A stretch of 53,142 nucleotides of DNA from a virus (Duplodnaviria; Caudoviricetes). The translations under genes and the position numbers were made by a program. The notes beneath the pieces are model-generated. The model saw only the letters and a list, made by a program, of their open reading frames with translations, made no database searches and was not told where the DNA came from. The stretch is taken from positions 1-53,142 of the IMG/VR virus record IMGVR_UViG_3300034682_000455; one strand, 5' to 3'. Shown in pieces: positions 27,188 through 51,195 of this stretch. The first letter of the stretch is position 1. The number at the start of each line of letters is the position of its first letter.

Positions 27188-27230
27188 CAAGGCTCCCGAT
27201 GTGGAGCCTTTTTCATTTACAGGAGCAAGC

Positions 27231-27648: not shown

Positions 27649-27672
27649 GGCTGCTCTCGGCCAGAAGCTGAC
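27649..27672 (+). repeat. 24-nt cargo-border element, copy A
   Basis: GGCTGCTCTCGGCCAGAAGCTGAC; a partial copy GTCCGCTCTAGGCTCGTAAC follows at 27693-27712. Confidence 0.55.
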
Positions 27673-27712
27673 CTTGAGCCACAACTTAAGTAGTCCGCTC
27701 TAGGCTCGTAAC

Positions 27713-29194
27713 TTAATGAAGTTTTACGTAGCTAGTGCTTTCACTTTTTGGATAAACGGCGAACTGTTCGACCAACTTGGCACTTCTTGCATCTAGCCCT
27801 CGCACTTCGACCTTTGTTCCGCCGCGTCGTAGTTTGAACACTACCCGGTCAAGTGCCTCAACTGAGGTCAAATCCCAAAACTGAGTCTGGCTCACATCAA
27901 TACAGATGCGCTCCACCTGTTCAAGGTAGTCAAACCTAGCAATAAAGCTTTCAGAAGAGGCAAAAAATACTTGCCCAGAAACAAAATAGGTACGTTGTTT
28001 ACCGTCTGGGCTGAGGCTTGAGGTGACATCCAAAATACGGCGCACCTTGTGTGCAAAGAACACACCAGACAGAAGAACGCCAGTCAGCACTCCCTTGGCC
28101 AAGTCATGGGTTGCAACAGTCACAACGACGGTAGCGAGCATCACAACGCTGGATGTTTTGGGGTGGGCAACCAAGTCCTTGATAGAGCGCCAGTTGAAGG
28201 TGCCAATCGACACCATGATCATCACGGCGACCAAGGCGGCCATGGGAATCTGCTTCACCAAATCGCCAAGAAACACAACCAATATCAGCAACACTACACC
28301 TGCGGTCAGCGTAGACAAACGCCCACGCCCCCCAGACTTCACGTTAATGACCGACTGACCAATCATGGCGCATCCGGCCATACCACCCACAAAACCTGTA
28401 GCAACGTTGGCGATACCTTGGCCGACGCATTCACGGTCTTTGTTACTCGTAGTGTCTGTCATGTCATCCACGATGGTGGCCGTCATGAGCGATTCCAGCA
28501 GGCCCACGACACACAGGGTGGCGGAATACGGCAGGATGATTTGGAGCGTCTCCCAAGTGAAGGGGACATTGGGAATGAAGAAGCTCGGCAGGCTATCAGG
28601 GAGTGCGCCCATATCGCCAACCGTGCGAATGTCTAGACCGAGAACCACATAAGCGATGCTTAAAACAATGATGGCAACCAAAGGCGAAGGAACGGCTTTG
28701 GTGATGTAGGGCAAGCCATAAATGATGGCAAGCCCTGCAGCCGTCATCGCATAGACATGCCAAGTGACATTGGTCAGCTCCGGCAGTTGAGCCATAAAAA
28801 TCAATATGGCCAATGCATTCACAAAGCCCGTCACCACGGAACGAGAGACAAACTGCATGAGCTGGCCCAAGCGTAAGAAGCCTGCCAGCATTTGGAGCAC
28901 ACCAGCAAGAATGGTGGCAGCTAGCAAATAGTCCAGTCCATGCTCTTTTACCAGCGTCACCATCACTAAGGCCATAGCGCCGGTAGCGGCTGAAATCATG
29001 CCAGGCCGCCCGCCAACAAAAGCAATAAGTGTGGCAATCGCAAAGGAGGCATACAGACCCACCTTGGGGTCAACGCCAGCAATGATGGAAAAAGCAATGG
29101 CCTCCGGAATAAGTGCCAAGGCAACAACGACGCCCGCCAGCAAATCGCCACGGACATTAGAGAACCATACGGTTCTGATTTTTTCAATAGACAT
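27713..29194 (-). CDS. SulP/SLC26-family anion transporter with C-terminal STAS domain (moron)
   Basis: [46 protein letters not shown]; many TM spans; lower GC; antisense. Confidence 0.95.
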
Positions 29195-29499
29195 AGGTAT
29201 ACCACCCTCAGCATAGAGGGGCAGAACGCACCAAAGCAACCTGCATGAAGGGCAGGAGTAGGCGCAATGAAAACGCGAGCAAGCCTATAGCTCTAGCTAC
29301 AGGCAAGACGAACAGGTGGGGCAAGAAGTAAAGCGTTCTTGCTGCGCTGGTGCCCAGATTAGGGCGGAGTGACGGAGCGGAAGCGTCCGCGAGGCAGGGC
29401 TGCGCCCCGGTAATCAACCGGTTGTTGCGTGAAGTGAGCAAGAGCAGCCATCGCAAGAATTTTAACTAGAAAAAACACATCCACACGATGAGCTTTAAG

Positions 29500-29523
29500 G
29501 ACTCCAAAGGGTCGATTCCTGTC
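29500..29523 (+). repeat. 24-nt cargo-border element, copy B
   Basis: GACTCCAAAGGGTCGATTCCTGTC. Confidence 0.5.
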
Positions 29524-29559
29524 GGTCAAATAGCTAGAGTTTGCTGAAGCCTGGGCAAG

Positions 29560-29602
29560 CCCCCGCTAAGGCTTGGGCTCGTGGTTGCTGTTGCGCGAGA
29601 CT
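29560..29602 (+). promoter_or_regulatory. Putative late promoter 4
   Basis: CCCCCGCTAAGGCTTG then GAGACT, T at +36. Confidence 0.6.
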
Positions 29603-29631
29603 GCACCTCAAGCAACCAATGAGGTACCCCC

Positions 29632-30921
29632 ATGGCCACGTCCGTCCCTACACGCCGCGCACTGATCGACCAGATCCCCACAGAAGAAGACCGCCAGGCG
29701 CCGGCGGCACGACCTCAATCCGGCATCCATTCTTCGGAGCTGGGCCGCCAGGCTTTCAACACGGCCATGGCACTGCCGGGTGTCGGAGGAATTGGCAAGG
29801 TGGCCCAAACGGGCGGCCTGGTCAGCCGGGCGTTGAACTCCACCGCCGGTGTTGCCAACAAGGTGGCCACCGGCACTGTAGCGCTGGCAGCGTTGCCTGC
29901 TGGGGCTGAAGCACCCGAGCCAGCACCTGCTGCACAACCTGCAAGCGCCGCTGGCGCTGGACGTGGCACGGTTAACCCACCCACTGCCGGGGCGACCAGC
30001 CCTCTGGTGGAGGCATCCCGACAGGTTGCTCCGGGCATTTACCGCGCCGGCAACAGCTATGCCGGCACGGGTGATGCGGCCGTGAGTCTGGACCGCGAGC
30101 CAAAGGGGCCGCCATCTGCCCAGAACATGGCCGCCGCTGACCAGCTGGCCGCGAACCAGCAGATGGAGAGCATCAGCCGTGTGGCCACCAGCGGCAACGT
30201 CCCGCAGTCTCCGACCCAGGGGCTGATTGGCCGCGTGACGGCCACGCACAGCGGCAACGACTGGACCGCGCGTGAGATGCTGCGGCGCCAGAAGACGAAT
30301 GCCGACAGCCTGATCCATCAGTCGCACTGGGCGCCCAAGGGTTCCGCCAGGGCAGCACAAGCCTCCTACCAGAACGCTGCAGCGGAGGATATGGCCGCCA
30401 TGACCAGGGGGCAGACCTCGGCCGATGTGGAGGTGATGCGCCAAAACGCGGGCTTGATGGGTGAGCAGATGCGGCAGTCCGGCGCTGACCGGCGCGATGC
30501 CCGCCGCGGCTTGATCGATGCGGCCCGCCTTGGCATGGACCAAGAAACCCAGGGCTTTGCCACCCGTGCCGCGGCCCAGCAAGAGCAGCTGCGCAGCACC
30601 TTGCTGGACCCCAACGCCAGCACAGAGCAGCGCGCATTGGCGCAGCGGTCCCTGGCGGCCCTGGCCGGCAAGTCGGCGGCGGACCGTTTGCAGACGGTGA
30701 ACCTGCCAGACACCACGACCGATATGGGCGCGGTGGTGCGCGGTGGCCAGGCGCTGGTGCGCATCATGGAAGATGGTACGGCTCAGCAGGTGCCCGTTGG
30801 TGCACAGGCGGCGCAGCCTCTAACCAACCACGTGCAGGCGCTGCGTAAGGATCCAAAGCTGGCTGCGCAGTTTGATGCCCAGTACGGCCCCGGTGCCTCT
30901 GCCCGCTATCTGGGCAAATAA
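29632..30921 (+). CDS. Putative internal virion/ejection protein (429 aa)
   Basis: Ala/Gln-rich, no Cys; C-terminal L..DP.LAAQFD..YG.G.SARYL motif; precedes the giant gene. Confidence 0.65.
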   Translation: MATSVPTRRALIDQIPTEEDRQAPAARPQSGIHSSELGRQAFNTAMALPGVGGIGKVAQTGGLVSRALNSTAGVANKVATGTVALAALPAGAEAPEPAPAAQPASAAGAGRGTVNPPTAGATSPLVEASRQVAPGIYRAGNSYAGTGDAAVSLDREPKGPPSAQNMAAADQLAANQQMESISRVATSGNVPQSPTQGLIGRVTATHSGNDWTAREMLRRQKTNADSLIHQSHWAPKGSARAAQASYQNAAAEDMAAMTRGQTSADVEVMRQNAGLMGEQMRQSGADRRDARRGLIDAARLGMDQETQGFATRAAAQQEQLRSTLLDPNASTEQRALAQRSLAALAGKSAADRLQTVNLPDTTTDMGAVVRGGQALVRIMEDGTAQQVPVGAQAAQPLTNHVQALRKDPKLAAQFDAQYGPGASARYLGK

Positions 30922-30942
30922 CCGAAACACGCCCGTGACAAC

Positions 30943-30965
30943 AACCCGCTTCGGCGGGTTTTTTT
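30943..30965 (+). terminator. Intrinsic terminator
   Basis: AACCCGC-TTCG-GCGGGTT plus T tract. Confidence 0.85.
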
Positions 30966-30968
30966 GCA

Positions 30969-31010
30969 CCCCGGCTGGGGTTCGCGCGTATGGATGGCGC
31001 TGGGCAAAGT
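30969..31010 (+). promoter_or_regulatory. Putative late promoter 5 (giant protein)
   Basis: CCCCGGCTGGGGTTCG then CAAAGT, T at +35. Confidence 0.65.
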
Positions 31011-31016
31011 GGGTGC

Positions 31017-34000
31017 ATGAGCACACAGAACCCCTTTGCAGATCCCAATTTTGGGCGCAGTGATGCACCGGTGAATGGGCAGCCTTCAGCCAGCAATCCG
31101 TTTGCAGACCCTGACTTTGGCAAGGCACCAGCCACCCCCAGGCGCTCCCTCCTGGCCGCCATCAACGACACCGTGATTGAAGGCGCCAACGCGGCAGCCG
31201 GCACTGCATCAGCGGTTGCTAACTTTGTGCGTCCTGGCAATGCTGCCTCGCAGTGGATCGATAAGAACATTGTCGAGGCCGGCGAAGCCGCGCAGTCCGA
31301 TGTGGTCAAGGCCGAGAAGGCGCGCTACAGCCAGGAAATGCAGGACGCCGATGGAATGGGCGGCGAGGTCGGGGCCACGCTGGGCTACGTGGCGCGCAAT
31401 CCGTTGCTGGCGGCGGCACAGGGTGCAGGCTCCTTTGCCACCCCGGGCGTGGCCATCAAGGGGGCAACCGCTGGGGCGCGTGCCCTGGGCCTGGGCACTA
31501 AGGGCACGACCCGGGCTGGCTTGGCTGCTGGCGCGGGTGTCGGGGCGGCTGGCGCCGGCGGCGATGCCGCGGGCACGGCCTACGAACTGTCCCGGGAAGG
31601 CGGGGCCACCGACGAGCAGGCCCTGGCAGCCGGCCGCAGTGCCAGCGTGCTGCCAGGCCTGATCGGCGCGGCCGGCGGCCTAGTGGGGGCGGAGCGCCTG
31701 GTGGCCGGCGCCGGAGGTTTTAAGGGCGGTCTGGTGGCCCGGGCCCTGAAGACTGGCGCCGTGGAGGGTGCTCAGGAGGCCCTGGAAGAAGGCGTGACCC
31801 AGTACGAGGGCCAGCGCGCGGCCGTTCCGTTCAATCCTGAGTTGGACCCCATGAAGGGCGTGGCCGGCGCCGCCACCATGGGTGCCGTGCTGGGCGGCAT
31901 GACCGGTGCTGGTGCTTCGGTGCTGACACCTTCGCAGCACCTGGGCATCGATCGCGCCAACGGTCCTTTGTCGAGAGTGGCAGCTGACGCCGTAGACAGC
32001 GCCCCCGCCGCAGAGCCTGCGCCAGAGCAGCCGCCAACACCGCTGCAGCTGGCCTACAACCCCGACCCCATGATTGTGTTCCCCGATGGAACCACGGGCA
32101 CGCGGGCTCAGCTGGACGCCTACATCGAAGGCTTGCCAGAAGACCAGCGGATTGCCGCACGCGCCCGCTTGATGGGGATGGCGCCGCAAGCGGCTGACTC
32201 GCACTTGCCGCCAGAAGGCTGGCAGGAGCAGTACCAGGACCAGCCGGTGCGCGAGCTGCCACCGGTGGCCAACCCGCTGGCCGATATGCAGCAAGCCGTG
32301 CGCGAAGCCACCGACTACACGGACGCCGGCAAAGTGGAGGCGGTGCGTGGCGAGTTGGAGGATGCCTGGCTGGCGCTGAACGTGGGGGAGGCCCAGCCGG
32401 TGGCCGCCGGCCAGGCCAGCAACGAAGCCCAAGCCCCCCAGGATGCCGACCCTGCCGACCTGACTACAGAAACGAATGCCCGCCTGCGCGCTGGCCGTGT
32501 GGCCAGTGGCGTGCGCAATGCATTCGACGGTGGGGCACCCAACACCTTGCGCGTGATCCAGCACGTGAACCAGGGGCTGCGCACGATTGGTGAGCAGCCG
32601 CTGACATCCCCAGAAATCGCCCGCATCCGCCGCCTGGCCGACGCCCGCACAGCGTTCGCAGGCCTGAACCAACGCGCCGATTTGCCTGCGGATCCAGCTC
32701 CGGCCGTCGATGCGAATGCCGACAACAGCGCCATGGAGGCGCTGATTCCCGAGCGCCCCGCGCTGCAGCCGGCCATGGAGCAGGGCACGCCCGGTGGCGC
32801 TGCAGCCCCGGCGCAGCGCACACCAGCCGGCAATGCTGACATCGCAGGGGATCGTGTCGGTGGCGAGTGGGTGGCATTTGGCCCCAGCTCCGGCACCTTG
32901 GGTGTCCCACGTGCCCGGATGCCCCAGGTCGATGCCGCACACCGTGGCGCCCTGGTCAATTACCTCAAGGGCCAGGGTATCGCCAGCGAGCAGGCCGAAG
33001 TGCCCGCTAACAGCCTGAAGCCGACCCAAGCGGAATTCTCTGAAGCCAAGGTGCGCAAGGCATCCAAGCGCACCGGCGGTGACCGCGCCATCTTGGTGTC
33101 GTCGGACGGCTACGTGGTGGACGGCCACCACCAGTGGCTGGCCAAGCGCCAGGACGGCCAGCCCGTGAAGGTCTTGCAGCTGCAGGCGCCCATTTCCCAA
33201 TTGTTGCCCCTGGTGGGCGACTTCCCCAGCGCCCGCACCGCAGAAGGTGCGCAGGCCACTTCCCAAGGACAGCCAAGCAATGGTCCCGCCACGCCTCTCA
33301 ACGATGAATCGCAAGCAGCAGCGCCGGATGCGCCGCAAGTTCAAACGCCAGGGTCTGCAGTCCCCCAGCAAGAAGGGGTAGCCGATGCCACGCAAACCAC
33401 TCAAGCCCAGCAGATTGGCGCGCAGCCTCAAGCGCAAGCAGCAGCGGGAGCACAAAGCGCAGAACCGCCGTCCGCACCGCAATTGGATGTCGCGCCAGGC
33501 GTAGCACGCAAGCGCACGGCCGGAGACAACGCCCGCAGCCGCAGCTATGACGCCAATCCCATGCGCGCATTCTTGGGCAAGCATGGAGTGTCATTGAACA
33601 GTCGCAGCGAGTTCGCCCCAGGCCTGCAAGAACTGCGCGGCACCATGGTTCCAGGCTATGGGCCTGTGTTTCGCAAAACAGGCAAACCCCTGGACTTGCT
33701 GGTGCACAACGCCATCGAAGAAGGTTTTTTGCCAGAAGGTGCCACGGATGCCGATCTGTACGAACTGATCGACCGTGCGGTGCGTCGCAGCGAGCGGGTG
33801 GACCCCATGTTCACTGCCGATGCGGCAGAGCAGCAGATGCGTGCAATGTTCGACCGTGAAGCCCAGCTGCAAATGGAGGCACAGCAGGCCATTGACGAAG
33901 AGGTGGCCGCTTACGAGGCGGTCCTTGCACAAGAGCTGGCAGACACGTACAGTGCACAGGAGCTGGAAGCGATTGACGCGGCAATTCCTTTTGATGCACC

Positions 34001-40209: not shown

Positions 40210-40310
40210 GCCGGATTATGTGGGCGGGCACTCTCGCAGTGCATTCCGCCCATCCTCCGGTGGCCTCGGTATGGTCGTAACAGAAGCCAATCCACTTCCA
40301 AATTAGATGG

Positions 40311-40334
40311 CTCTGCTTTCGACCCATAGCAGTC
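40311..40334 (-). repeat. 24-nt cargo-border element, copy C
   Basis: GACTGCTATGGGTCGAAAGCAGAG on the minus strand. Confidence 0.55.
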
Positions 40335-40368
40335 ATTAGCTAGTGATAGAGGGCAAAGTTTTAGTGCT

Positions 40369-41448
40369 CTATCCTTTCTTTACTGGGCGGCGGATCAACA
40401 CAACAACCAGCGTCACGACCGTCAGCGGTACGACGAAGCTGAGCATGACGCCCGAGAATGCTGGCAGCGCATCGTGCTGCTGCGCGGCCATGATCAAGTA
40501 AGCCACGTATGCGACGTAGTAGCCCAGAAAGACCCCGCCTTCCCAGCGAGCGATCTCGCGACCAGTCATGAACACGGGGAGGCAGGCAAACGACACTGCC
40601 ACCATGACCCAGATGTCAAAGGCCAGCAGCGATGGAGCCATGTCCAACCCCAGGTCACCCGACACTAGGCCCGAGACACCCAGGCAGCCCAGAATGTTGA
40701 AGGTATTGCTTCCCACCACATTGCCTACTGCGATGTCCCGTTCGCCCTTGATGACTGCGGCGATGCTGGTGGCAACCTCGGGCATGCTGGTACCAGCGGC
40801 AACGATGGTCAGCCCAATGATCAGGTCGCTCACACCCATGGCCTTTGCGAAACTCACCGATGCTTGCACTAGGTACTCGGAGCCGAACACTAACGCAGCT
40901 AGGCCAGCGGCAATCAGCAGCAACTGAACCAGCAACCGATCGTCCCAGGCGCCGGGGGCAGAGGGTTTGATCTCACCCGCGTATTCGTCCTTGGCGAGCT
41001 GGGTTTCGCGCCGTGACTGCACGATCAGGAACACTGTGTAAGACACCAGCAGCACGAAGAGAAAACCGCCATCGAAAAACGAAAGTTGACCGTCCAACCC
41101 CAAGGCGAGCAAGAGAAAACATGCACCGATCATGATCGGTACCTCCTGGCGTATCAGCTGAATGTTGACCACCAGCGGTGCAATCAACGCGCTGATGCCA
41201 AGGATGAACAGAACGTTGAATATGTTGCTGCCCACCACGTTGCCAATGGCAATGTCGGTTTTCCCATCGAGCACGGCCCCCACGCTGACTGCAACCTCGG
41301 GTGCGCTTGTGCCGAGCGCAACGATCGTCAGTCCCACGACCAGCGGACTGATGCCAAACGACAGGGCCAGCTTGGAAGAGCCTCGCACCAACAAGCTGGC
41401 ACCCATGACCAGCAAGAAAAGCCCGCCGAGAAATAGAAGGATGTTCAT
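40369..41448 (-). CDS. Ca2+/Na+ antiporter, CaCA (YrbG-like) family (moron)
   Basis: Two alpha repeats GTSAPE/GTSMPE, each followed by DIA.GNVVGSN.FN. Confidence 0.95.
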   Translation of the reverse strand: MNILLFLGGLFLLVMGASLLVRGSSKLALSFGISPLVVGLTIVALGTSAPEVAVSVGAVLDGKTDIAIGNVVGSNIFNVLFILGISALIAPLVVNIQLIRQEVPIMIGACFLLLALGLDGQLSFFDGGFLFVLLVSYTVFLIVQSRRETQLAKDEYAGEIKPSAPGAWDDRLLVQLLLIAAGLAALVFGSEYLVQASVSFAKAMGVSDLIIGLTIVAAGTSMPEVATSIAAVIKGERDIAVGNVVGSNTFNILGCLGVSGLVSGDLGLDMAPSLLAFDIWVMVAVSFACLPVFMTGREIARWEGGVFLGYYVAYVAYLIMAAQQHDALPAFSGVMLSFVVPLTVVTLVVVLIRRPVKKG

Positions 41449-41553
41449 GACTGAGCACTGTAGCTAAGAATCAAGTGGCACAGCTTACCAGGCGCGTACC
41501 TTTATCGAGCCTCCATGCATGCCATAGCTCGCCATAAGTCCTCCTTATAGAGC

Positions 41554-41577
41554 GTCGGCTTCTGGCCGATAGTCGAC
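41554..41577 (+). repeat. 24-nt cargo-border element, copy D
   Basis: GTCGGCTTCTGGCCGATAGTCGAC. Confidence 0.55.
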
Positions 41578-41633
41578 GCACAACACCAGATGAAGACTGT
41601 ATAGCTTGGCCGTTACACCCAGAGCAATTTTGA

Positions 41634-41671
41634 AAGCCTCAACTGCGCATGCAGTTGGGGCTTCTTTGTTT
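41634..41671 (+). terminator. Hairpin/terminator insulating the tail operon
   Basis: AAGCCTCAACTGC-GCAT-GCAGTTGGGGCTT then CTTTGTTT. Confidence 0.65.
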
Positions 41672-41673
41672 CA

Positions 41674-41715
41674 CCCCGGCTAGGGGTGGCAGCAAGTGGC
41701 AGGCCTGGAGAGACT
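41674..41715 (+). promoter_or_regulatory. Putative late promoter 6 (tail operon)
   Basis: CCCCGGCTAGGGGTGG then GAGACT, T at +35. Confidence 0.68.
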
Positions 41716-41849
41716 GGCGCCAGTTTCAGTAGGCCGGCCATTCCCATTTGCTTTTGGCGATCACTCCGCACGGATTGGTGGCTGCTGATTTTCCAAGTGC
41801 GCGGATCCTGGTCTGTGCACCTTCAGCAACCTCGTGAAGGAGTGCCACC

Positions 41850-42251: not shown

Positions 42252-42263
42252 GGAGCCACTGAC

Positions 42264-43433
42264 ATGACGCACAAACTCGCTGCCCGTGTGGGGGCACAAA
42301 GCGCCGTGGTGGGCACCGCGGCCGTGACCTTTGGTGCTGCGCTGGCTGCGCACAAGGCCTTTGGCGCAGTGCTGGCCACGGGCGATACCACCGAATACCT
42401 GCTGTATGCGTGTGACGCTAATGGCGCGGCCACTGGCGCATGGGAAGTAGGCGTGGGGACGTACTACGGCCCCGACGATGTGGGTGGCGAGCGCCTGGAG
42501 CGCACCACCGTGCACGAAAACTCCGCCGGCACGGCCGTGGCCATCGACTTTGCGGCCGGGGACAAGCGCGTCGTGATCACGCCGCTGGCCTCGCGCCTGG
42601 CCATGATCCCGCCCGGTGGGGCCGAGGGCCAGATGCTGGCGCTGGATGCCACCACGGGCAAACTCAAGTGGGTGGACGCGCCTTCAGGCGGTGGTGGTAC
42701 GCCTTTGCTGCCGCTGCCCGACTACCGCTTGTTCCTGTTTGTGCGCGATGACGGCAGCGACACCAACACTGGGCTGGAGAACACAGCCGGTGGCGCCTTG
42801 AAAACGCTGGATGCAGCCTTGGCCAAGGTCTATACCTACGACATCCCCGAAGGCGACACTGTGACGATTACGTTCGGCAGTGGCACCTACTCCTGCTACG
42901 ACTTCCCGCAGCCCGCCAGCCACCCGCTGGAGTTCACGATCTCCTTGGAGCCTGATTCCGCCGCGACCGTGGTGTTTGACGTTCTGGGGCTTGGGATCAC
43001 CAAGCAGTTGGTCGAGGCCGAGAATGTTCGCATTTGCAAGTCCAACTTGAAGAACGCGGCGCTGTACGACATAACCTTGGGCGACGCTGTGGACGGCGTT
43101 TCAGACGCCACGCTCACTGTGAGCAAGGACGGCAATGTGGCCGTCTACGGCTGCACTGCTGTGGGGGACTGCCGCCAGCGCTTTGTGACGGAACAGGGCG
43201 CCAAGCTGGAGGTTTACACCTTGTCGTTCTCCGCCGGTTCGCACCACAGCACCGCAGTGTGTGAGCTGGGCCCCTTTTCAGAGATTGCCCTTGTTGATTT
43301 CACCGGAACAACCACCGGCAAGAAGTTCAACATGGCCAGTTTCAGCATCCTGCGCTCGCCGGGTGAGGGTGGTATGGCGGCGCTGCCCGGTGATAGCGAT
43401 GGCTATCTGCCCACTGCCGGATATGTGATCTAA
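42264..43433 (+). CDS. Putative tail fibre/spike
   Basis: WEVGVGTY...L.RTTV..NS anchor; FVRDDGSDTNTGL...ALKTL.AA motif that typically starts a beta-helix. Confidence 0.7.
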   Translation: MTHKLAARVGAQSAVVGTAAVTFGAALAAHKAFGAVLATGDTTEYLLYACDANGAATGAWEVGVGTYYGPDDVGGERLERTTVHENSAGTAVAIDFAAGDKRVVITPLASRLAMIPPGGAEGQMLALDATTGKLKWVDAPSGGGGTPLLPLPDYRLFLFVRDDGSDTNTGLENTAGGALKTLDAALAKVYTYDIPEGDTVTITFGSGTYSCYDFPQPASHPLEFTISLEPDSAATVVFDVLGLGITKQLVEAENVRICKSNLKNAALYDITLGDAVDGVSDATLTVSKDGNVAVYGCTAVGDCRQRFVTEQGAKLEVYTLSFSAGSHHSTAVCELGPFSEIALVDFTGTTTGKKFNMASFSILRSPGEGGMAALPGDSDGYLPTAGYVI

Positions 43434-43443
43434 GGCGCTGACC

Positions 43444-44295
43444 ATGGCTGTTGCGACCTCTGCCCTGGGCGTCCATGCCATTGCCGGCGGGGTGCCGGCC
43501 GCCGCCCCGGCGCCCAGCGTGGCGGCCGTGCTGCTGGATGCCGGCGCCCTGGGGGCCTGCGCCATCGGCTTTGCCGCCCTGGGCGCCGAGGTGCTGCAGG
43601 TGGCCAGCCCGCCACCGCCCGCCCAGGCGGTGCTGCGCAGCGCCGGCGCCATCGGGGCGTTGGCCATCGGTGACGGCGCCCTGGGGGCAGTGGAGCTGAC
43701 GGCCGGCACGCCCGAAGCTCCCACCCAGGAGGTCCACGCCCAGGGCCTGCTGGCCACGCGCTTCGGTGGCCCGCACACGGCACAGCCCTGGTATGGACCC
43801 GCCGGCGGCCTGGCCCCGGTGCGCTTTGGCGCCGCGGCGCTGCAGCTGCGGGCCGAGGGCCTGGGCCTGCAGCAGCCGTTGGCGCAGTTCGGCGGGGCCG
43901 TGGCCTCCCAGGTGTTCGTGCGTGAGCAGGGGATGGCGCCACAAACCCGGTTCCCCGGCGCTCTGCTGGTGCAGGTGGTGCACGCGGCCGGGGCTGCGCC
44001 TTCGGCCCGCATGGGGGGCCTGTCCGCGGGCAGCGTAGCCAGCCTGCAAGGTGCTGGGCCGCTGGCCCAACTGGGCCCGCTGTCGGCGCAGCTGGTGGTG
44101 CAGGCCCAGGGCATGGCCTCTCAAACCCGCTTCGGCGGCGCCACGGCGCTGGGCAAATCCGAGGCCATCACCGAGGGCTACCAAGGCACCCAGTACGGGC
44201 AGCTGGCGCTGGCGCGCACGACCGTGTTCGCGCATTCCCTGCCGCCGACCACGCGGTTTTCACGGCACCAACTGCAATGGGGGCAGCGATGCTGA
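43444..44295 (+). CDS. Gly/Ala-rich repetitive tail protein
   Basis: Repeated AGA.GA.AIG..ALG and G....TRFG units. Confidence 0.6.
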   Translation: MAVATSALGVHAIAGGVPAAAPAPSVAAVLLDAGALGACAIGFAALGAEVLQVASPPPPAQAVLRSAGAIGALAIGDGALGAVELTAGTPEAPTQEVHAQGLLATRFGGPHTAQPWYGPAGGLAPVRFGAAALQLRAEGLGLQQPLAQFGGAVASQVFVREQGMAPQTRFPGALLVQVVHAAGAAPSARMGGLSAGSVASLQGAGPLAQLGPLSAQLVVQAQGMASQTRFGGATALGKSEAITEGYQGTQYGQLALARTTVFAHSLPPTTRFSRHQLQWGQRC

Positions 44296-45464
44296 CACTC
44301 AAGAAATTCACCGGCATCAACAACGTGATGCCCCTGGCCCGCCAGGGCAAAACCGAGCTGGCCAGCGCCCGCAATGTGGAAATCGGTCTGAGCGAGGAAG
44401 TCCGCCGCCGAGCAGGTTATGTGCGCCTGGATGACAACTGCCACAAGAATTTGTGGCAATCGCCGCATTTCATGCTCTTTACCTGTGGTGGCGACCTCAC
44501 AGCCCTGCACCCGGACGGTACCCGCGCGCTGCTGTATCCGGCGCTGGGCATGGTCCGGGTCTGGTACTGCGACCTGCCCGATGGCCGGGTGGGTTTCAGC
44601 AACGGGCTGATCTGCGGCATCACCGATGGGCGCAGCTGCATGCCCTGGGGCGTGCCGCTGCCCCAGCAGGCGGGGCAGGCCCAGGCCGTGGCCGGCGGGC
44701 TGGATGCCGGCACCTACCTGTATGCCCTGGCCCATGTGCGTGACAGCGACGGGCTGGAGGGCGGGGCGGTGCTGGGCGGCCAGGTCGAGGTGCCCCAGGG
44801 CGGCGGCATCCTGATCCAAGGCCTGGCGGTCGAGCCCGGCCACGGCACCCAGGTCTACCTGTCCAGTCCCAACGGCAGCCAGCTGTTCCTGGCAGGCTTC
44901 ACCCCCGGCGGGGCCTTCAGCTTCCTGGGCACGGCCGACAACCTGACCGTGCCCTGCCGCACCGAGCACCTGATGCCGGCCATGCCCGGGCGCCTGATGA
45001 CCTGGTGGAACGGCCGCGTGCTGGTGGCCGATGGCAGCGTGCTGCGCGCCTCCATGCCCTTCCAGCCCGAGCTGTTCAATGGCCTGGGCGACTTCTACCA
45101 GTTCACCGCGCCCATCACCGCCGTGCAGCCGGTGGACGATGGCGTGTGGGTGGGCACCGAGCGTGAGCTGGCATTCCTGGCCGGCAGCAGCTTTGACGGT
45201 TTGGCCTACCGCAATGTCAGCAACGAGGGCGTGGTGCTGGGCTCGGGCGTGAGCGTGCCGGGCGACATGGTGGGCTTGGGTGATGGCGGGCGCGGCTCGG
45301 GCACCGCCATGCTGTGCATCCTGGGCGGCAGCATCACCGCCGGCCTCAACAGTGGCACCCTGCGCCGCATCACCCAGGGCCGCTACCAGACGGCCGCGCG
45401 CGAAGTGGCCGCCACGTTCCGGCTTGAAAACGGGGTGCCCCAGTACCTGGCCGTGGAGCAGTGA
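44289..45464 (+). CDS. Putative tail nozzle/tube protein
   Basis: F.GINN...L..ARNV......RRAGY N-terminus typical of podovirus nozzle proteins; beta-rich. Confidence 0.65.
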   Translation: MLTLKKFTGINNVMPLARQGKTELASARNVEIGLSEEVRRRAGYVRLDDNCHKNLWQSPHFMLFTCGGDLTALHPDGTRALLYPALGMVRVWYCDLPDGRVGFSNGLICGITDGRSCMPWGVPLPQQAGQAQAVAGGLDAGTYLYALAHVRDSDGLEGGAVLGGQVEVPQGGGILIQGLAVEPGHGTQVYLSSPNGSQLFLAGFTPGGAFSFLGTADNLTVPCRTEHLMPAMPGRLMTWWNGRVLVADGSVLRASMPFQPELFNGLGDFYQFTAPITAVQPVDDGVWVGTERELAFLAGSSFDGLAYRNVSNEGVVLGSGVSVPGDMVGLGDGGRGSGTAMLCILGGSITAGLNSGTLRRITQGRYQTAAREVAATFRLENGVPQYLAVEQ

Positions 45465-47545
45465 TGCTGAACAACCCGTTCTGGCTCCAGCTCGATGGCA
45501 CCCCGACCGAGGCGCGCCCCCCGGCGGCCCTGCGCGTGCTGCAGCGGCCGATTTCCAAGGCGCAGCTGGCCGGCGTGCAGCACCTGTATGGCCTGTTCGC
45601 TGCGCAGATGCGCCTGTCGGTGGCCCCCGGCCAGCAGTGGGAGCGCTTCTTGCCGGATGGCACGCGGGTGCTGCTGCGCTCGCATCGCGGGAAGGACGAG
45701 GTGCTGGTGTGGCCAGCGGACGGCGATAAAGACGAGCATGTATGGTTCTTTGCGCCGTACAACCGACTGCTTACTTTCAGCAATGTGCAAAAGCAGGGCT
45801 CGGTGCGCCGCTCAGACAGAAGTGTTCGCAGCGTTCAGTCCTTGGACGGGGTGCTGTCCTCTTGGGAAGTCGTCGTCGGCACTGGCACCGTCAACAACGC
45901 GAAGCTATCGAAGTTGGCGCGGACCGAGAAAGAGCAAGCCACCGGGTACACCCACGTTAAGGCGTGGTCACACAATGGGGAGGACAAATGGCGCTACCTT
46001 CCCGGACTGGTGGATAAAAGGAATGTGTATCTAGGCACGTACCTGCATGGCAAGGTGAGCGCCAACGCAACAACGGGGCAGACTATTTCTGTAACCGGCG
46101 CCGCGCCCGTAGTCATCCCAGGCACGCGCCAGCGGCTGATGACGCCAAACACCAATTTGATCGCCTTGCCGGGACTGCCAGCGCCCAAGCCGCCTACCCA
46201 GTTGCTGGCTGCGCCCGTGGGCTTGCGCAATAAGGCCATCGTGTACGGCACCTCTCGGATGTATGACACGCTGACCAACACTGCGATTGGTGTTGGCATC
46301 CACCCTTACGCGCCAAACCTGCATGACCCACTTGGCAAGCGCGCATTGTTCATCGTGGAATGTGCGATTGAAGGCACGGCCCCCTATGCGAACTTGAACC
46401 CGGGTGGCGCGGCGTCTGTGGCCGGGACGAGCTACCACGACTATGCGGTGGTGCGTGTGCGCAGGCAGAACCCCAACAAGGCGCCTAAGACAAGCGTTCT
46501 TTTCGCGGGCAAGCTGGAATTTGTGTGCAACGCGCGCACCGCTTGGGTCTATTTCGCGCGGTATGTGACCTTCTCACCGGACGGCTCCAAGGTGTGCGTG
46601 GCCATCCACATGTACGCCGACTGGCAGCTGGCTGCGCGTGCGCACACCCTGCAAGACATTCGGGACAGCCTTGGCGTGGCTGCAGCGTGGGAGTTCACGC
46701 TATCGGGCGGCACTCAAAAAGACTGGCCGACGAGCCAGATGCGGCAGGTGGTCAGCCCGAGCGACCACAAGACAACTACCACTGTGGTGCAGCCCAAGCA
46801 GGTCTATTTTCGGGAGGCATCCGTATCGGAGGGGACCAGTACCATCACGGCGTATGGACCTAACGACGAGTATTTAAACGGCCAGTCGCGGTATTACGGG
46901 TCACAGAGCTTTGCCTATGTAGATCGGCTGACGGACGACTTTGTATCGGTGGTGGAGGAAAAACCACTGATGGCGGAGTACGGCAAAGACAGCACGCTCA
47001 AGGTCATCACAAACCGCATCACCCAGCAGACGGAGCTGACTGACCTCAAGCCCTACACGACCAAGCCCGCCTTTGTGGAGTATGACTGCATTTTGGGTGT
47101 GTCGTGGTACGTGCGGCCACCGGACTTTGTGGAGAGCTACGACTACTCGTTTGAGCAGAGCATCGAGCGAAGCATTCTGAGCAACGGCGCCCCGGTCTAT
47201 AGCGCCAAAACAACCCGGACTTATCGCCGGGGGGTGAAGGGCACCTTCACAGCTTCGCTGACGAATCCGCCGTGGACGGCCACTTACGAGTACCTTGATT
47301 ACACGCAGCCCCAGGCACTACCTACCGCCGATTCATTCAGGACAGTGCCCTTGGGCTCCAACAACACATTCATTGTGCTGGGGATGGCCAGATCGGGCGA
47401 TGGGCAGAACACGCGATTGATGGCCGTGGATCAGGTGCTAACAACGCTGGATGTGCTGCCCAAGGATTCCACGGGGCGCTATTGGTATTCGTGGAACCCC
47501 ATCACCGACGAAATTTCTTCCGGGGAGGGCACCGCTTGGTGCTGA
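45461..47545 (+). CDS. Putative receptor-binding tail protein (694 aa)
   Basis: GC-rich first ~90 codons, then a lower-GC Thr/Ser/Tyr-rich body; tail operon. Confidence 0.6.
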   Translation: MMLNNPFWLQLDGTPTEARPPAALRVLQRPISKAQLAGVQHLYGLFAAQMRLSVAPGQQWERFLPDGTRVLLRSHRGKDEVLVWPADGDKDEHVWFFAPYNRLLTFSNVQKQGSVRRSDRSVRSVQSLDGVLSSWEVVVGTGTVNNAKLSKLARTEKEQATGYTHVKAWSHNGEDKWRYLPGLVDKRNVYLGTYLHGKVSANATTGQTISVTGAAPVVIPGTRQRLMTPNTNLIALPGLPAPKPPTQLLAAPVGLRNKAIVYGTSRMYDTLTNTAIGVGIHPYAPNLHDPLGKRALFIVECAIEGTAPYANLNPGGAASVAGTSYHDYAVVRVRRQNPNKAPKTSVLFAGKLEFVCNARTAWVYFARYVTFSPDGSKVCVAIHMYADWQLAARAHTLQDIRDSLGVAAAWEFTLSGGTQKDWPTSQMRQVVSPSDHKTTTTVVQPKQVYFREASVSEGTSTITAYGPNDEYLNGQSRYYGSQSFAYVDRLTDDFVSVVEEKPLMAEYGKDSTLKVITNRITQQTELTDLKPYTTKPAFVEYDCILGVSWYVRPPDFVESYDYSFEQSIERSILSNGAPVYSAKTTRTYRRGVKGTFTASLTNPPWTATYEYLDYTQPQALPTADSFRTVPLGSNNTFIVLGMARSGDGQNTRLMAVDQVLTTLDVLPKDSTGRYWYSWNPITDEISSGEGTAWC

Positions 47546-47551
47546 ACTGAT

Positions 47552-47986
47552 ATGACCACCATCTGCATGAACACCCTCAATGGGGCAGTCACCGAGTTTG
47601 ACTGGAATTTTCAAAGCATCACCCCCACGCACGCCGGCGATGTGACCGGCCTGTATGCGCTGGGCGGCGATACCGATGCGGGCCGGCCGATTGACGCCAG
47701 CTTTATGACGCCATTGCTGCAGTGGCAGAGCAGCCTGCGCAAAGCCATGAGCGCGGTCTATTTCTCCATGTCCGGAGCGGGCGTGGGCAACTTGCATGTG
47801 CACGGCAAGGTGGGCCAGTGGGCCTATCCCTTCGCGGTGCGCGCTTCGGAGGTGTCCCGGGCTTCGCCGGGCCGCGGCATCTGCGAAAGCTACCTGGCCT
47901 TCGGCTTCAGCAACAAGGAAGGCGCGGCCTTCTCGATTGATGCCGTCGAGGTGGCCACCGTGGCATCCAACAACCGGAGGATCTGA
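47552..47986 (+). CDS. Tail-module hypothetical protein (144 aa)
   Basis: MNTLNGAVTE..., GRG....YL.F motifs; operon context. Confidence 0.7.
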   Translation: MTTICMNTLNGAVTEFDWNFQSITPTHAGDVTGLYALGGDTDAGRPIDASFMTPLLQWQSSLRKAMSAVYFSMSGAGVGNLHVHGKVGQWAYPFAVRASEVSRASPGRGICESYLAFGFSNKEGAAFSIDAVEVATVASNNRRI

Positions 47987-47988
47987 AC

Positions 47989-49830
47989 ATGGCAACCAAC
48001 CCCCAAGACCTGCAAAGCGCGGCCGAGCTGGTCAACAGCACGTTTGCGCTGGCCAAGGACTATGCTGACGCGGCAGAGGCCAAGCTGACCACCTTCACCC
48101 AGGCCCTGGAAACGTCGATCTACGCGCCGCCCACGCTGAGTGTGACCTGGCAGACCATGGCACCGCCCACGCTGGAGCAAGCACCCGCGGCGCCGGCCAT
48201 GCCCAACATCGCCTACAACCCGGCGAACGTGGGGGGCACGCCCGCACCATTGGCCGAGGCCATCCCCGACATTGACATTCCCGAGTTCACGGACACCCTG
48301 CCGCCGCTGGTCTTTCCGGCCGCGCCGGCGATCAATTACGGGGTGGTGCCCACCGTCCCCGCGGTGGGCAATGTGCCGGTGCCCGCCGCCCCGAGCGTCA
48401 GCATGCCGGGCGCGCCCACGTTCCTGGAGCTCAAAGCCGTGGCTTTCAGCGGGGTGAATCTGCGCGAAGACTGGCTGGACAAGCTGCAAGACGCCCCCCA
48501 GCTGGAAATCCTGGCCCCCACGCCCTACAGCTACCAGCGGGGCCCCGAGTACGCATCGCAGCTGCTGGACAACCTGAAGGCGGTGCTCAACCGCCGCATC
48601 GCCGGCGGCAGCGGCCTGGCCCCGGCCGTGGAGCAGGCCCTGTGGGCGCGGGCCCGTGACCGCGAGGCCGCCATTGCCCGCACCGGGGAAACCGAGGTGC
48701 TGCGCTTGCATGAGGCCCGGGGCTTTGTGCTGCCCAGCGGGGTGATGGCCGAGCAGCTGCGCCAGGCCAACCGCGACTACCTGGGCAAGCTCAGTGACTT
48801 GAGCCGCGACATTTCGATCAAGCAGGCCGAGCTGGAGCAGCAGAACCTGCGCGAAGCGATTGCCCAGGGCATGCAGCTGGAGGCCCAGCTGATGGACTAC
48901 AGCTGGAAGATCGAGCAGCAGACGTTTGAAGCCGCCCGCCTGATGGCCGAGAACGCGATTGCGGTGCACAACGCGCAGCTCGAGCAGTTCAAGGCGCTGC
49001 TGCAGGGCTACGAATCGTATGCCAGCGTCTACAAGACCATCATCGAAAGCCAGCTGGCCAAGGTCGAGGTCTACAAGGCCCAGCTGGCGGCCGAGCAGTC
49101 CAAGGCGGACATCAACCGCTCCCTGGTCGAGCGCTACAAGGTGCAGATCGAGGCCGGCATGGCCGAGGTCGAGATTTACCGCGCCCAGGTGGCCGCAGCG
49201 CAGACCCTGGTGCAGCTGGAGCAAGCCAAGATCGGCGCCGCCGGCGAGCAGGTGCGCGCCTATGTGGCGCAGATGAACGCCGAGACTGCCAAGATGGAAA
49301 TCTACAAGTCGGGCGTGCAGGCGGAAGCCACCAAGGTGGAGGTGTTCAAGGCCCGCGGGGCGGTGTATTCCACCCAGGTGCAGGCCCAGGCTGAGAAGTC
49401 GCGCGCCCTGGTGTCGCGCTTTCAGGCGCTGGCCCAGGCCAAAAGCTCCGAGTGGGAGGGCTACCGTGCCCGGGTGGCGGCTGAAGGCCTGCGCCTGGAT
49501 GCGCTGGGCAAGCAGTCGGCGGCCATGCTGGACGCCTACCGGGTGGCGAATGCGGCCATCCAGTCCAAGGCCGAGCTGCAAACCAAGGTGTGGGAAACCA
49601 GCATGCGCCAGTACGAGGCCGGCATCCAGGTGTCGCTGCAGACCGCGCGCATGAACAACGAGGCCGTGATCGCCGCCAACAACGCCCGCGCCGACGCGGC
49701 CAAGGTCGGCACCCAGGTGTTTGCCCAGCTGACGGCATCGGCCATGAACATGATGCACACCAGCGCCGGGATCTCGGGTTCTGCCAGCCGCAACGAGAGC
49801 CACAGCTACAGCTACGAGGGCACATCCTGA
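47989..49830 (+). CDS. Virion protein with Pro-rich N-terminus and long coiled coil (613 aa)
   Basis: GGAGG RBS; ARGF.LPSG motif; repeated V..Y.AQ heptads. Confidence 0.75.
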   Translation: MATNPQDLQSAAELVNSTFALAKDYADAAEAKLTTFTQALETSIYAPPTLSVTWQTMAPPTLEQAPAAPAMPNIAYNPANVGGTPAPLAEAIPDIDIPEFTDTLPPLVFPAAPAINYGVVPTVPAVGNVPVPAAPSVSMPGAPTFLELKAVAFSGVNLREDWLDKLQDAPQLEILAPTPYSYQRGPEYASQLLDNLKAVLNRRIAGGSGLAPAVEQALWARARDREAAIARTGETEVLRLHEARGFVLPSGVMAEQLRQANRDYLGKLSDLSRDISIKQAELEQQNLREAIAQGMQLEAQLMDYSWKIEQQTFEAARLMAENAIAVHNAQLEQFKALLQGYESYASVYKTIIESQLAKVEVYKAQLAAEQSKADINRSLVERYKVQIEAGMAEVEIYRAQVAAAQTLVQLEQAKIGAAGEQVRAYVAQMNAETAKMEIYKSGVQAEATKVEVFKARGAVYSTQVQAQAEKSRALVSRFQALAQAKSSEWEGYRARVAAEGLRLDALGKQSAAMLDAYRVANAAIQSKAELQTKVWETSMRQYEAGIQVSLQTARMNNEAVIAANNARADAAKVGTQVFAQLTASAMNMMHTSAGISGSASRNESHSYSYEGTS

Positions 49831-49838
49831 CCGTGTGA

Positions 49839-49880
49839 CCCCGGCTAGGGTTATGCGTTTGCCACCCTGGCCGAGACACT
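49839..49880 (+). promoter_or_regulatory. Putative late promoter 7 (lysis cassette)
   Basis: CCCCGGCTAGGGTTAT then GACACT, T at +35. Confidence 0.7.
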
Positions 49881-49911
49881 GCCCCCCAGAAGGCAGTCCA
49901 CCCCCCAACCG

Positions 49912-49932
49912 CCGCCTTCGGGCGGTTTTTTT
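49912..49932 (+). terminator. Terminator-like hairpin in the lysis leader
   Basis: CCGCC-TTCG-GGCGG plus T7. Confidence 0.7.
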
Positions 49933-49945
49933 ACGCCCGAACACC

Positions 49946-50212
49946 ATGAAAGTCGAAACAGCCATCGAAGCCGCCAACGCCGCAGCCATCGGCAGCAAAA
50001 CCACCCTGGCGGGATCTGCAACGGCAGGTGTGGGCTGGGCCACCTCCAGCGCGTTCTTTGGCTGGGTGGGTGTGATCATCGCGCTGCTGGGCCTGGGGGT
50101 GAACTACTACTTTCGGCGCAAGGAGCACGAGCTGCGCTTGCGCGATGACGCGCGCAAGGAGGCCGAGCACCTGGCGCGCATGCAAGCCATTCAGGGAGGG
50201 TGCGATGTCTAG
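49946..50212 (+). CDS. Holin
   Basis: 88 aa; TM span then VNYYFRRKE basic tail; overlaps the endolysin start. Confidence 0.82.
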   Translation: MKVETAIEAANAAAIGSKTTLAGSATAGVGWATSSAFFGWVGVIIALLGLGVNYYFRRKEHELRLRDDARKEAEHLARMQAIQGGCDV

Positions 50213-50675
50213 CAAAGCCAAACTGATCGCCGCCATCGGCGCGGCCGCCACCGCGCTGGTCGTGCCGCTGGTGGCTAAGTACGAGGGCACCGTGCTGCGC
50301 ACCTACCGCGACCCCATCGGCATCATCACCGCGTGCACCGGCCACACCGGGCCTGCGCTGCGCATGGGTCAGACCTTCACCCGCCAGCAGTGCGAGGTCC
50401 TGCTGTACCAGGACTTGGCCCAGCACGCCGATGCCCTGGGCTGTATCCGCCAGCCGCTGACAGACGGCCAGCGCGCCGCCTTCCTCAGCTTTGCCTTCAA
50501 CGTGGGGGAGGGTGCGTTTTGCCAATCCACCCTGGTGCGCAAGGCGAATGCGGGCGACCTGCAGGGCGCGTGCGCAGAGCTGAGCCGCTGGACCTATGCC
50601 GGTGGCCAGCAGCTGCCCGGCCTGGTACAACGCCGCGCGGCAGAGCGCCAGCTGTGCGAAGGGGGGCTGGCATGA
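50205..50675 (+). CDS. SAR endolysin, GH24 lysozyme
   Basis: Ala-rich N-terminal anchor; EG......YRD..G..T.C.GHT catalytic E-D-T triad; LPGLVQRR..E..LC. Confidence 0.95.
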   Translation: MSSKAKLIAAIGAAATALVVPLVAKYEGTVLRTYRDPIGIITACTGHTGPALRMGQTFTRQQCEVLLYQDLAQHADALGCIRQPLTDGQRAAFLSFAFNVGEGAFCQSTLVRKANAGDLQGACAELSRWTYAGGQQLPGLVQRRAAERQLCEGGLA

Positions 50676-51160
50676 GTGCCCGGGCCCTGGCGGCCGCCGT
50701 GGGCGCGGCCTTGGTGTTTGGGGCGGGCTGGGTGGCCAACGGCTGGCGCCTGGATGGTCAGCACGCCGCAGAGCTGGCACAGCGTGACCGTCAGGCCCTG
50801 GCCGTGGCCGAGCAGGTCATGGCCATCGGGCGCGCAGCGAATGCCGCCATCTCAACCGCAGACGCGAAAGCTTGGAAAGGACTGGAAGATGACAAGAAAG
50901 AGCTACGCCGCCTGCGCGGTTGTGTCGCTGATGGCACTTGCGGGGTGCGCCTCATCGCCGGCCAAAGTGATCACGGGCCCAGCAATCCAGGCGCCGGCAG
51001 CGTGGGCCATGACACCGTCGAACTCGATCCAGACGTACAACGCCGTGTTCTCGAACACCGAGAAGCTATCGGGGAAGACGCCAAAAAATTAGAGTACCTG
51101 CAGGCGTATGCGTTGCAGTGCTGGCGGGCCATCAACGGTGAGGATGGACCTACTCGGTAA
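50672..51160 (+). CDS. rz: Rz-like inner-membrane spanin
   Basis: N-terminal TM (AGW.ANGWRL), coiled coil, LQAY C-terminus. Confidence 0.85.
   Translation: MSARALAAAVGAALVFGAGWVANGWRLDGQHAAELAQRDRQALAVAEQVMAIGRAANAAISTADAKAWKGLEDDKKELRRLRGCVADGTCGVRLIAGQSDHGPSNPGAGSVGHDTVELDPDVQRRVLEHREAIGEDAKKLEYLQAYALQCWRAINGEDGPTR
50889..51092 (+). CDS. rz1: Rz1-like outer-membrane lipoprotein spanin, embedded in Rz
   Basis: +1 frame inside Rz; lipobox LAGC; P.AWAM.P motif. Confidence 0.85.
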   Translation: MTRKSYAACAVVSLMALAGCASSPAKVITGPAIQAPAAWAMTPSNSIQTYNAVFSNTEKLSGKTPKN

Positions 51161-51171
51161 TTGGCTTCGCT

Positions 51172-51195
51172 GAATGCAAACGACCCGAAACGGTC
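51172..51195 (-). repeat. 24-nt cargo-border element, copy E
   Basis: GACCGTTTCGGGTCGTTTGCATTC on the minus strand, 11 nt after the Rz stop; a looser copy at 51219-51243. Confidence 0.5.

Follow-up and report, generated by a model that had tools for sequence, protein, structure and literature searches.

The dif modules of Acinetobacter, as an excerpt of one account describes them, are bounded by inversely oriented sites, come in two alternating kinds, and can be replaced one at a time between near-identical replicons (PMC13141974). In the same excerpt they are thought to move via cointegrates, since inverted sites cannot excise a single module (PMC13141974). Here we analyze five copies of a short, loosely palindromic element in a virus record (Duplodnaviria; Caudoviricetes; IMGVR_UViG_3300034682_000455, positions 1 to 53,142). 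This whole 53,142-nt stretch, called the window below, reads as the provirus of a podovirus-like temperate phage. The elements border a SulP-family permease gene, a Na+/Ca2+ exchanger family gene, and a third cargo block at the right end. In engineered recombinase-mediated cassette exchange, the two flanking sites differ in their crossover region, are inert together, and each react with a like site elsewhere. Phage morons and prophage defense hotspots hold host-benefit and defense genes, on the opposite strand, in fixed late-region slots and at a prophage end.

Very probably, a site-specific recombinase uses the five elements as core sites in duplex DNA. They would bound cassettes that are swapped via like-centered sites by an enzyme acting in trans. 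A preliminary description of the window had taken the elements for recombination sites or scars of a mechanism that acts in trans and brings unrelated genes into slots of the phage. Two results support this reading: breakpoints between related prophages fall in the elements, and the cassettes recur in unrelated DNA. Judged from sequence alone, the cassette system of Comamonas appears to carry transporter and anti-phage defense genes between chromosomes, conjugative elements, and prophages.

Breakpoints and shared cassettes

Relatives of the window phage are prophages in Comamonas genomes, C. jiangduensis and C. halotolerans among them. Four relatives for the comparison of slots were taken from viral contigs (G001 to G004; L001 is the G001 locus). 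The identity of G001 to the window is 95% as far as 27667 and from 29509 onward; between these points G001 has 1.5 kb of different DNA. Base by base, the outer half and the center of each SulP-flanking element are shared, and the cargo-facing half differs. A metagenome contig with the same backbone (X5) has 820 other letters between 27668 and 29509. G004 is 91% identical until 40327, inside site 3 (sites are numbered as in Table 1), and carries other cassettes after that point. In the related prophage in genome G053, the end of the Rz gene and the outer arm and center of site 5 are shared, apart from a 1-nt indel, and the sequences diverge at the inner arm, at ~51190. The breakpoints of these four comparisons lie within the elements and not away from them, as the preliminary description expected of recombination sites. 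The cargo of the phage relatives includes a DUF4145/Sel1 protein, a glyoxalase and PFIN pair, a HEC-07 candidate defense protein, and a KTSC protein. The X2 contigs are too fragmented to be informative at the borders, and stretches without coverage were given no weight. A megablast search with 24 kb of the window gave zero matches to deposited phages, and a search for relatives with the tail gene at 42264-43433 returned two distant loci, neither of them usable.

The same cassettes were sought in 77 Comamonas genomes, with identities taken from blastn. The SulP cassette (27649-29514) is present in three of them (G033, G027, and G032) at 99.4-99.6% identity, and the matching blocks run from window position 27644, 27649, or 27654 to 29514. 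The exchanger cassette is present in two, G031 (99.8%) and G033 (97.8%), in blocks that span 40319-41572 and 40346-41552. Except for one 431-nt, 69% stretch in locus L074, the contigs that bear these cassettes otherwise share nothing of 60 nt or more with the window. The cassettes are found in a conjugative element (with TraC, TraG_N, and an IS3 transposase), a chromate/arsenic resistance array, a distantly related phage, and an integrase-bearing island. In isolate contigs X17 and X19 and in a second X5 contig, SulP similarity ends at 27654 or 27658 on one side and at 29514 or 29515 on the other.

Junctions are exact in at least eight contexts. At each cassette border the center stays the same together with the inner arm, and the outer arm is a different one that still carries the arm motif. 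This pattern indicates that the cargo-facing arm moves with the cassette and that the outer arm belongs to the recipient. At site 1, the inner arm and center (27659-27672) move with the SulP cassette; GGCCAGAAGCTGAC is constant, and the outer arm is different in each of four to five contexts. At site 2, GACTCCAAAGGGTCG is constant across contexts and the outer arm is variable. The exchanger borders behave likewise: the G031 copy shares the window sequence from CGACCCATAGCAGTC onward at site 3, and at site 4 it keeps GTCGGCTTCTGGCCG next to a different outer arm.

A weight matrix built from the five sites was run over 450,506 nt of the relatives and gave nine matches scoring at least 15. Five of the nine lie at slot borders of G001 and G004, and the remaining four represent one homologous coding position, in the gene at 29632-30921. 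A site-like 24-mer at 30672-30695 in the window lies in the coding sequence of a 429-aa virion gene. It is kept in G001 to G004 and in locus L030 with scores of 12-20, and may be a chance match or a cryptic site.

Site anatomy and a candidate recombinase

All five 24-mers were found at the places where they had been reported, the two given by their minus-strand starts (40334 and 51195) being the intervals 40311-40334 and 51172-51195. Their positions relative to the genes are also as claimed: two bracket SulP, two bracket the exchanger, and one sits at the border between phage DNA and the defense locus. The SulP-flanking sites lie 40 nt past the SulP stop and 260 nt ahead of its start, the exchanger-flanking sites 34 nt past the stop and 105 nt ahead of the start, and the fifth site 11 nt after the Rz-like lysis gene. 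The invariant positions of the consensus in the preliminary description hold, but its full form is matched by the element at 27649 only; the other four agree at 11, 13, 13, and 12 of the 14 specified positions. The invariant core, GNCNNNNNNNGGYCR, is weak alone, with 77 matches on both strands of the window. The orientation given to the element at 27649 had to be reversed, and the sites have a polarity and two center classes.

When each site was left out of the weight matrix in turn, the left-out site ranked 1, 5, 1, 1, and 3 among 53,023 positions. Equal scores are expected 0.05, 1.30, 0.00, 1.07, and 1.68 times per Markov-shuffled window for the same five sites. From window data alone, three of the five sites would fall short of significance, and picking by eye inflates the ranks. 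Chance is excluded for the five because of the comparative evidence from shared cassettes and breakpoints, not because of window statistics. A second matrix, trained on 20 oriented sites and applied to the whole window with a cutoff of 10, gives seven matches. These are the five sites (22.4-27.8) and two matches within coding sequence, at 30672 (12.2) and 33002 (10.1). None of the seven lies in a core intergenic region, which agrees with the earlier observation. Two supposed looser copies, at 27693 and 51219, score only 6.3 and -6.7 and are not supported.

Pattern matches in Comamonas genomes led to clusters of sites with a spacing of 0.5-4 kb, located behind the gpD gene of a P2-like prophage, beside guaA in a chromosome, and in longer arrays. 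The sites are not specific to phages, a correction to the preliminary description: they also occur in chromosomes, in a conjugative element, and in the unrelated P2-like prophage. Cargo in these clusters includes an HNH defense-type nuclease, alpha/beta hydrolases, ars operons, a major facilitator superfamily (MFS) pump, and an M20 peptidase with TctC and LysR genes; transposases were not seen among it. The pattern searches, one of them above all, were swamped by CTG/GCC-rich coding sequence, for which the reversed-pattern control was unfair, and no claim on distribution is drawn from that one.

In 769,790 nt there are 67 distinct sites, of which 30 have the center TGGCCG (T-type), 26 the center GGGTCG (G-type), and 11 a variant. 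The consensus reads AA-n-GaCTGCTtyt / TGGCCG or GGGTCG / rwAGCAGnC, with inverted arms of ~10 nt around a center of 5-6 bp. The pyrimidine-rich arm comes first, and of the two arms the 5' one is the better conserved. The AA at -2/-1 on the inner side is present in 24 and 21 of the 30 T-type sites and in 20 and 16 of the 26 G-type sites; since it lies outside the matrix, it independently supports the orientation. Two inverted arms, a short conserved center, and hybrid arms at each border are what a core-type tyrosine-recombinase site would be predicted to have. The 5' arms face the cargo in every cassette read. Described over 50 neighboring pairs of sites, long pairs are oriented (-,+) in 23 cases and (+,-) in three, and short pairs (+,-) in eight cases and (-,+) in none. 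The long (-,+) pairs that could be typed combine a G-type and a T-type site 17 times, three of them accounted for by the SulP cassette, and two T-type sites once.

Two repeats were seen in the chromosomal cluster beside guaA (locus L040, G007:C2). A ~60-nt repeat at 9141-9207 lies behind an alpha/beta hydrolase gene, within a site-bounded module. This repeat has multiple copies in the genus, and 3,654 plasmid records match it where resistance gene cassettes end, for example fosE. It presumably corresponds to an integron attC, which it resembles, and its place inside a module suggests that integron cassettes can nest in these modules and that both systems coexist. At 8177-8365, a site and the next ~175 nt up to the start of the cargo gene form a dispersed repeat, found at 70-76% identity in at least eight genomes of the genus, which some cassettes may have in common as a leader or promoter. 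In the window, TAGCTAG occurs four times (27729, 29293, 29531, and 40337), always within or next to the two transporter cassettes. The expected number is about 1.1 per window, and four copies were reached in 3 of 100 shuffles. The motif also occurs between cassettes in G004 (L019, ~2634).

A 207-aa tyrosine recombinase is the candidate for the enzyme. In G027 its gene directly adjoins the SulP cassette, and its downstream site is the left site of the cassette. The protein matches PF00589 (9.4e-17), and its residues 43-198 align to the catalytic domain of XerD (131-281). The motifs RGCDL, HSIRR, and GHSKLESTIRY, identified by eye, supply the R, H-x-x-R, H/W, and Y residues of the catalytic site. 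The protein comprises little beyond the catalytic domain and has no normal N-terminal core-binding domain. Against NCBIfam it gives Xer-like matches below threshold only. The gene is present in 23 of the 77 genomes, often in multiple copies or as fragments. A (+) T-type site lies ~150 nt upstream in 15 of 19 full-length loci and a (-) T-type site 82-85 nt downstream in 12, and 18 of the 19 have at least one such site. At these loci the arms that face the gene are the 3' ones and the 5' arms vary by locus, so the recombinase module is of the opposite kind to the cargo cassettes.

Site matches, counted with a 30-nt site model and at most 95 candidates scored per genome, have a median of 22 in genomes with the gene and 7.5 in genomes without it (Mann-Whitney p = 5.6e-5; per Mb, 7.9e-6). 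The family of homologs has at least 8,000 matches; the best 120 are 83-99% identical, and nearly all are 207 aa long. Among the homologs listed are proteins of Comamonas, Delftia, Variovorax, Curvibacter, Ramlibacter, and Rubrivivax, annotated only as tyrosine-type recombinase/integrase. The family extends over the Burkholderiales and is found on 406 plasmid records, and on pMOL30 site-like sequences lie on both sides of the recombinase gene. Taken together, the chances that the 207-aa protein acts on the sites appear to be about even. A common large integrase beside the arrays was also considered and rejected: the genes at L075 8224-9456, at L044 12824-14068, and at the left end of the window (1-1101), and the small recombinase of L073, are mutually unrelated.

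Table 1. Sites, cargo genes, and selected phage genes of the window, with the evidence for each; site scores are those of the 20-site matrix.
Feature	Position	Strand	Evidence or remark
Site 1, T-type (TGGCCG on - strand)	27649..27672	-	left SulP border; score 25.4
Site 2, G-type (GGGTCG)	29500..29523	+	right SulP border; score 22.4
Site 3, G-type	40311..40334	-	left exchanger border; score 27.8
Site 4, T-type	41554..41577	+	right exchanger border; score 25.3
Site 5, G-type	51172..51195	-	left border of third cargo block, which runs off the window; score 23.7
SulP-family anion permease, 508 aa, STAS domain	27713..29239	-	Pfam PF00916 8.6e-61, PF01740
Na+/Ca2+ exchanger family gene, 359 aa	40369..41448	-	Pfam PF01699 5.5e-66
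LmuB-like SMC-type ATPase of Lamassu, cut by window end	51424..53142	-	PADLOC LmuB 3.1e-67; Pfam DUF3732 4e-41 (C-terminus)
Tyrosine integrase, phage-type	1-1101	-	ORF scans
YqaJ-type exonuclease	6344-8158	-	ORF scans
S24/HTH repressor	12947-13618	-	ORF scans

The right-end block, which had been called a defense locus, does hold a defense gene as the third cargo, the LmuB-like Lamassu ATPase. A 93% identical copy of this gene is present in genome G061; the similarity starts at 51347, not at site 5, and there are no sites nearby. The partner of site 5 would be expected past the Lamassu genes, as a T-type site on the plus strand. Scans of the open reading frames (ORFs) of the window also identify a D12 methylase, a replication initiator, a DnaB helicase, an SU10-type portal and adaptor, a 2,975-aa ORF, tail genes, and the Rz-like lysis gene, which ends at 51160. 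The reported lack of a transposase and of an integron integrase holds for the ORFs scanned, but a phage-type tyrosine integrase does exist at the left end. The ORF at 27201-27506 stops at a TAG, after which a conserved tail of 33 further codons leads in the same frame to a TAA at 27603-27605. G003 and G004 have a TAT in place of the TAG, and their ORF is uninterrupted over the stretch that corresponds to 27201-27605. The difference points to a recent nonsense change, or to stop read-through, in the window and G001. Three copies of a 26-nt GC hairpin motif (CACCCCGGCTrGGGGTG-like; 27137-27162, 30960-30985, and 41665-41690) lie directly 5' of plus-strand late genes. These copies differ from the cassette sites and probably represent stem-loops that the phage itself has between its genes.

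Proposed exchange and competing explanations

Strand exchange would take place inside the center of the site. The two unlike-centered ends of a cassette (TGGCCG versus GGGTCG) would not recombine together, an incompatibility suggested by the 17-to-1 pairing, and each would cross over with a like-centered site elsewhere. Two such crossovers could swap a cassette between replicons. The enzyme would be supplied in trans, and the candidate is the 207-aa tyrosine recombinase, encoded in its own module between two T-type sites. In this prophage, sites probably colonized two late-operon slots and one right-end slot, which now hold the SulP permease, the Ca2+/Na+ exchanger, and the Lamassu gene, probably drawn from the Comamonas cassette pool. 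Recognition as duplex DNA and not as a hairpin is indicated because four of the five sites fold no better than shuffles and because the arms are hybrids.

Host XerC/XerD could instead use the sites, which would make the cassettes true dif-type modules as in Acinetobacter, with the small recombinase a passenger. Inversely oriented sites, alternating module types, and single-module replacement match the dif modules as far as the excerpt describes them (PMC13141974). Two Xer-like genes have the top PF00589 scores in each of three genomes. The genus dif could also be unusual, as the proteobacterial dif motif was found in one of five Comamonas genomes and, in another search, in two of five. We nevertheless regard the use of the sites by Xer as unlikely. 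The site arms (GaCTGCT...) appear unlike Xer-binding arms, the sites do not resemble the proteobacterial dif motif, the site is 24-30 nt long with two distinct center classes, and a dedicated recombinase gene lies beside such sites at fixed distances in 18 of the 19 loci. Separately, the proteobacterial dif motif was not seen within three mismatches in three of five near-complete genomes (G032, G016, and G056 are among those tested), and the chromosomal dif of Comamonas may be divergent. Another possibility is that the elements are brief conserved linkers or regulatory sequences at which general or phage homologous recombination happens to cross over. In its favor, a YqaJ-type exonuclease is encoded in the prophage, phages are known for mosaic junctions at conserved stretches of short length, and promoter/stem-loop cassettes of T4-type phages have reportedly been proposed as linkers for homologous recombination. 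However, the partners share just the 5-6 bp center and a loose arm motif, too little for homologous exchange. The exact junctions in at least eight contexts, the presence of the same sites around cassettes in chromosomes and in the conjugative element, and the one-of-each-center regularity (17 to 1), for which linkers give no reason, make this very unlikely.

The inverted ends around every cassette, which move with the cargo, are also what non-autonomous transposons would have if the inner arms and center were terminal inverted repeats and a palindromic target supplied the outer arms. Such targets, however, would all bear the same arm motif as the ends. No direct target duplication was found in any SulP context (four of four) or exchanger context (two of two), and no transposase was found in the 10 larger-cassette ORFs scanned or in the phage cassettes. 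Membership among transposons or miniature inverted-repeat transposable elements (MITEs) was rejected on the lack of a direct repeat at all six cassette copies and of a transposase in the 10 ORFs, and this explanation is highly improbable. Even less can be said for repeats or terminators of a hairpin kind, like repetitive extragenic palindromes (REPs), with no role in mobility, or for chance similarity. Three of the five sites do lie between convergent genes, three of the five leave-one-out scores are expected about once per shuffled window, and the site at 41554 folds better than shuffles (z = -2.54). The other four sites fold no better (z = +0.71, +0.96, -1.16, and -0.42), and a hairpin reading was rejected on this comparison. 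The arms are hybrids of two origins, the copy number is low (1-68 model matches per genome), and breakpoints coincide with the sites in every close comparison. The lack of hairpin excess in four of five sites, the 1-68 matches, and the hybrid arms also led us to reject membership in the system of REPs and REP-associated tyrosine transposases (RAYTs). The probability left for hairpins or chance is minimal.

Several observations weigh against site-specific exchange of cassettes. Inverted flanking sites cannot simply excise a cassette, and the proposed exchange offers no route for the first entry into a site-free backbone. In G004, similarity may run through the whole of site 3 with a 4-nt indel instead of ending at the center. 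In the more distant relatives G002 and G003, and at slot 1 of G004, the same slots have other contents and no strong sites, with breaks at 27485-27609, 29550-29650, 40269, and 41634. This indicates that the slots are general variable spots that the system colonized and that the sites are a feature of one lineage. Slot 1 of G003 (L003 8845-9837) holds an insertion sequence with an rve-type transposase and two ORFs of unknown function, and the slot accepts cargo by other routes too. Among the neighboring pairs, 16 of 50 have the same orientation, which may reflect sites below threshold. The loci for the pair statistics were reached via pattern matches and form an ascertained sample, so that the figures are descriptive, and the orientation convention was initially set by eye. 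The co-occurrence test ignores phylogeny, and scoring stopped at 95 candidates per genome. The recombinase gene is missing (E <= 1e-15) from 54 of the 77 genomes, some of which are site-rich (G047 with 37 matches, G036 and G037 with 26 each, and G007 with 20), and on an Acidovorax plasmid no sites lie near an 85%-identical copy. A co-occurring recombinase, for which the preliminary description had suggested a search, is represented by the candidate in 23 genomes with higher site counts, but no recombinase for these sites was found in the window (tblastn with the 207-aa candidate, best E = 0.84).

Relation to known cassette systems

The Comamonas cassettes could represent a third independent platform for bacterial gene cassettes beside integrons and dif modules, a proposal we hold tentatively and at somewhat less than an even chance. 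It would consist of a minimal 207-aa recombinase, 24-30-bp sites, and two incompatible centers, with cassettes exchanged and not excised. No paper with the site sequence, the recombinase accessions, or a description of such a system was found in the main texts of open-licence PubMed Central (PMC) and bioRxiv articles, and the cassette system apparently was undescribed before. If the platform is real, transport, metal-resistance, and defense genes would travel by it among chromosomes, conjugative elements, and moron slots in prophages that are not related. The gain of host-benefit and defense genes by temperate phages at fixed slots would then be explained, since the slots would plug into a pool common to the host chromosome and conjugative elements instead of depending on rare illegitimate events. 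The Comamonadaceae and other Burkholderiales would gain a further cassette system, one that has sites of its own and probably a very small recombinase to go with them. This bacterial group is environmentally important, and the modules carry arsenic and chromate resistance and defense genes. The small recombinase and two naturally incompatible short sites could also serve as a cassette-exchange tool.

Overall, the Comamonas cassettes are best described as modules of a site-specific system that resembles dif modules in its working and is probably distinct from them. As in the excerpted account of the Acinetobacter modules, accessory genes lie in discrete modules between short inverted sites, crossovers would fall within the site, and the cargo includes metal resistance and similar adaptive genes. 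There are again two module kinds, which alternate between inverted sites: cargo cassettes have the 5' arms inside, and backbone and recombinase modules have the 3' arms inside. In contrast to the 28-nt (11-6-11) sites of dif modules, the Comamonas sites are unrelated in sequence, are 24-30 nt long, and have two center classes, one of each per cassette. They are found on chromosomes, a conjugative element, and prophages, whereas dif modules belong to Rep_3 plasmids, and a 207-aa recombinase gene, the candidate enzyme, occupies a module of its own.

Like integrons, the system has a pool of single-gene or promoter-less cassettes, imperfect palindromes, and a candidate tyrosine recombinase, and arrays occur. 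Unlike integrons, each cassette has two short inverted duplex sites in place of one folded attC of 57-141 nt, the cargo stands in either orientation, and there is no adjacent intI/attI/Pc platform. The attC core (RYYYAAC ... GTTRRRY) was found at the junction of none of the five window sites and none of 56 aligned sites, whose junctions lie at TGGCCG or GGGTCG; the preliminary description had likewise seen no attC, and a GTTRRRY-type core is missing from the junctions of all five. NCBIfam models for integron integrases score far below cutoff for both the window integrase and the 207-aa recombinase. With neither the core nor an adjacent integrase found, an integron attC reading was rejected. 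The two unlike sites per cassette resemble those of engineered cassette exchange, here in a natural setting and with an incompatibility suggested by the 17-to-1 pairing. Finally, the window cargo, on the opposite strand in late-region slots and at the right end, is placed like that of morons and defense hotspots. The difference from morons is that the slot borders here carry defined sites shared with a host cassette pool, which would provide a mechanism for loading the slots.

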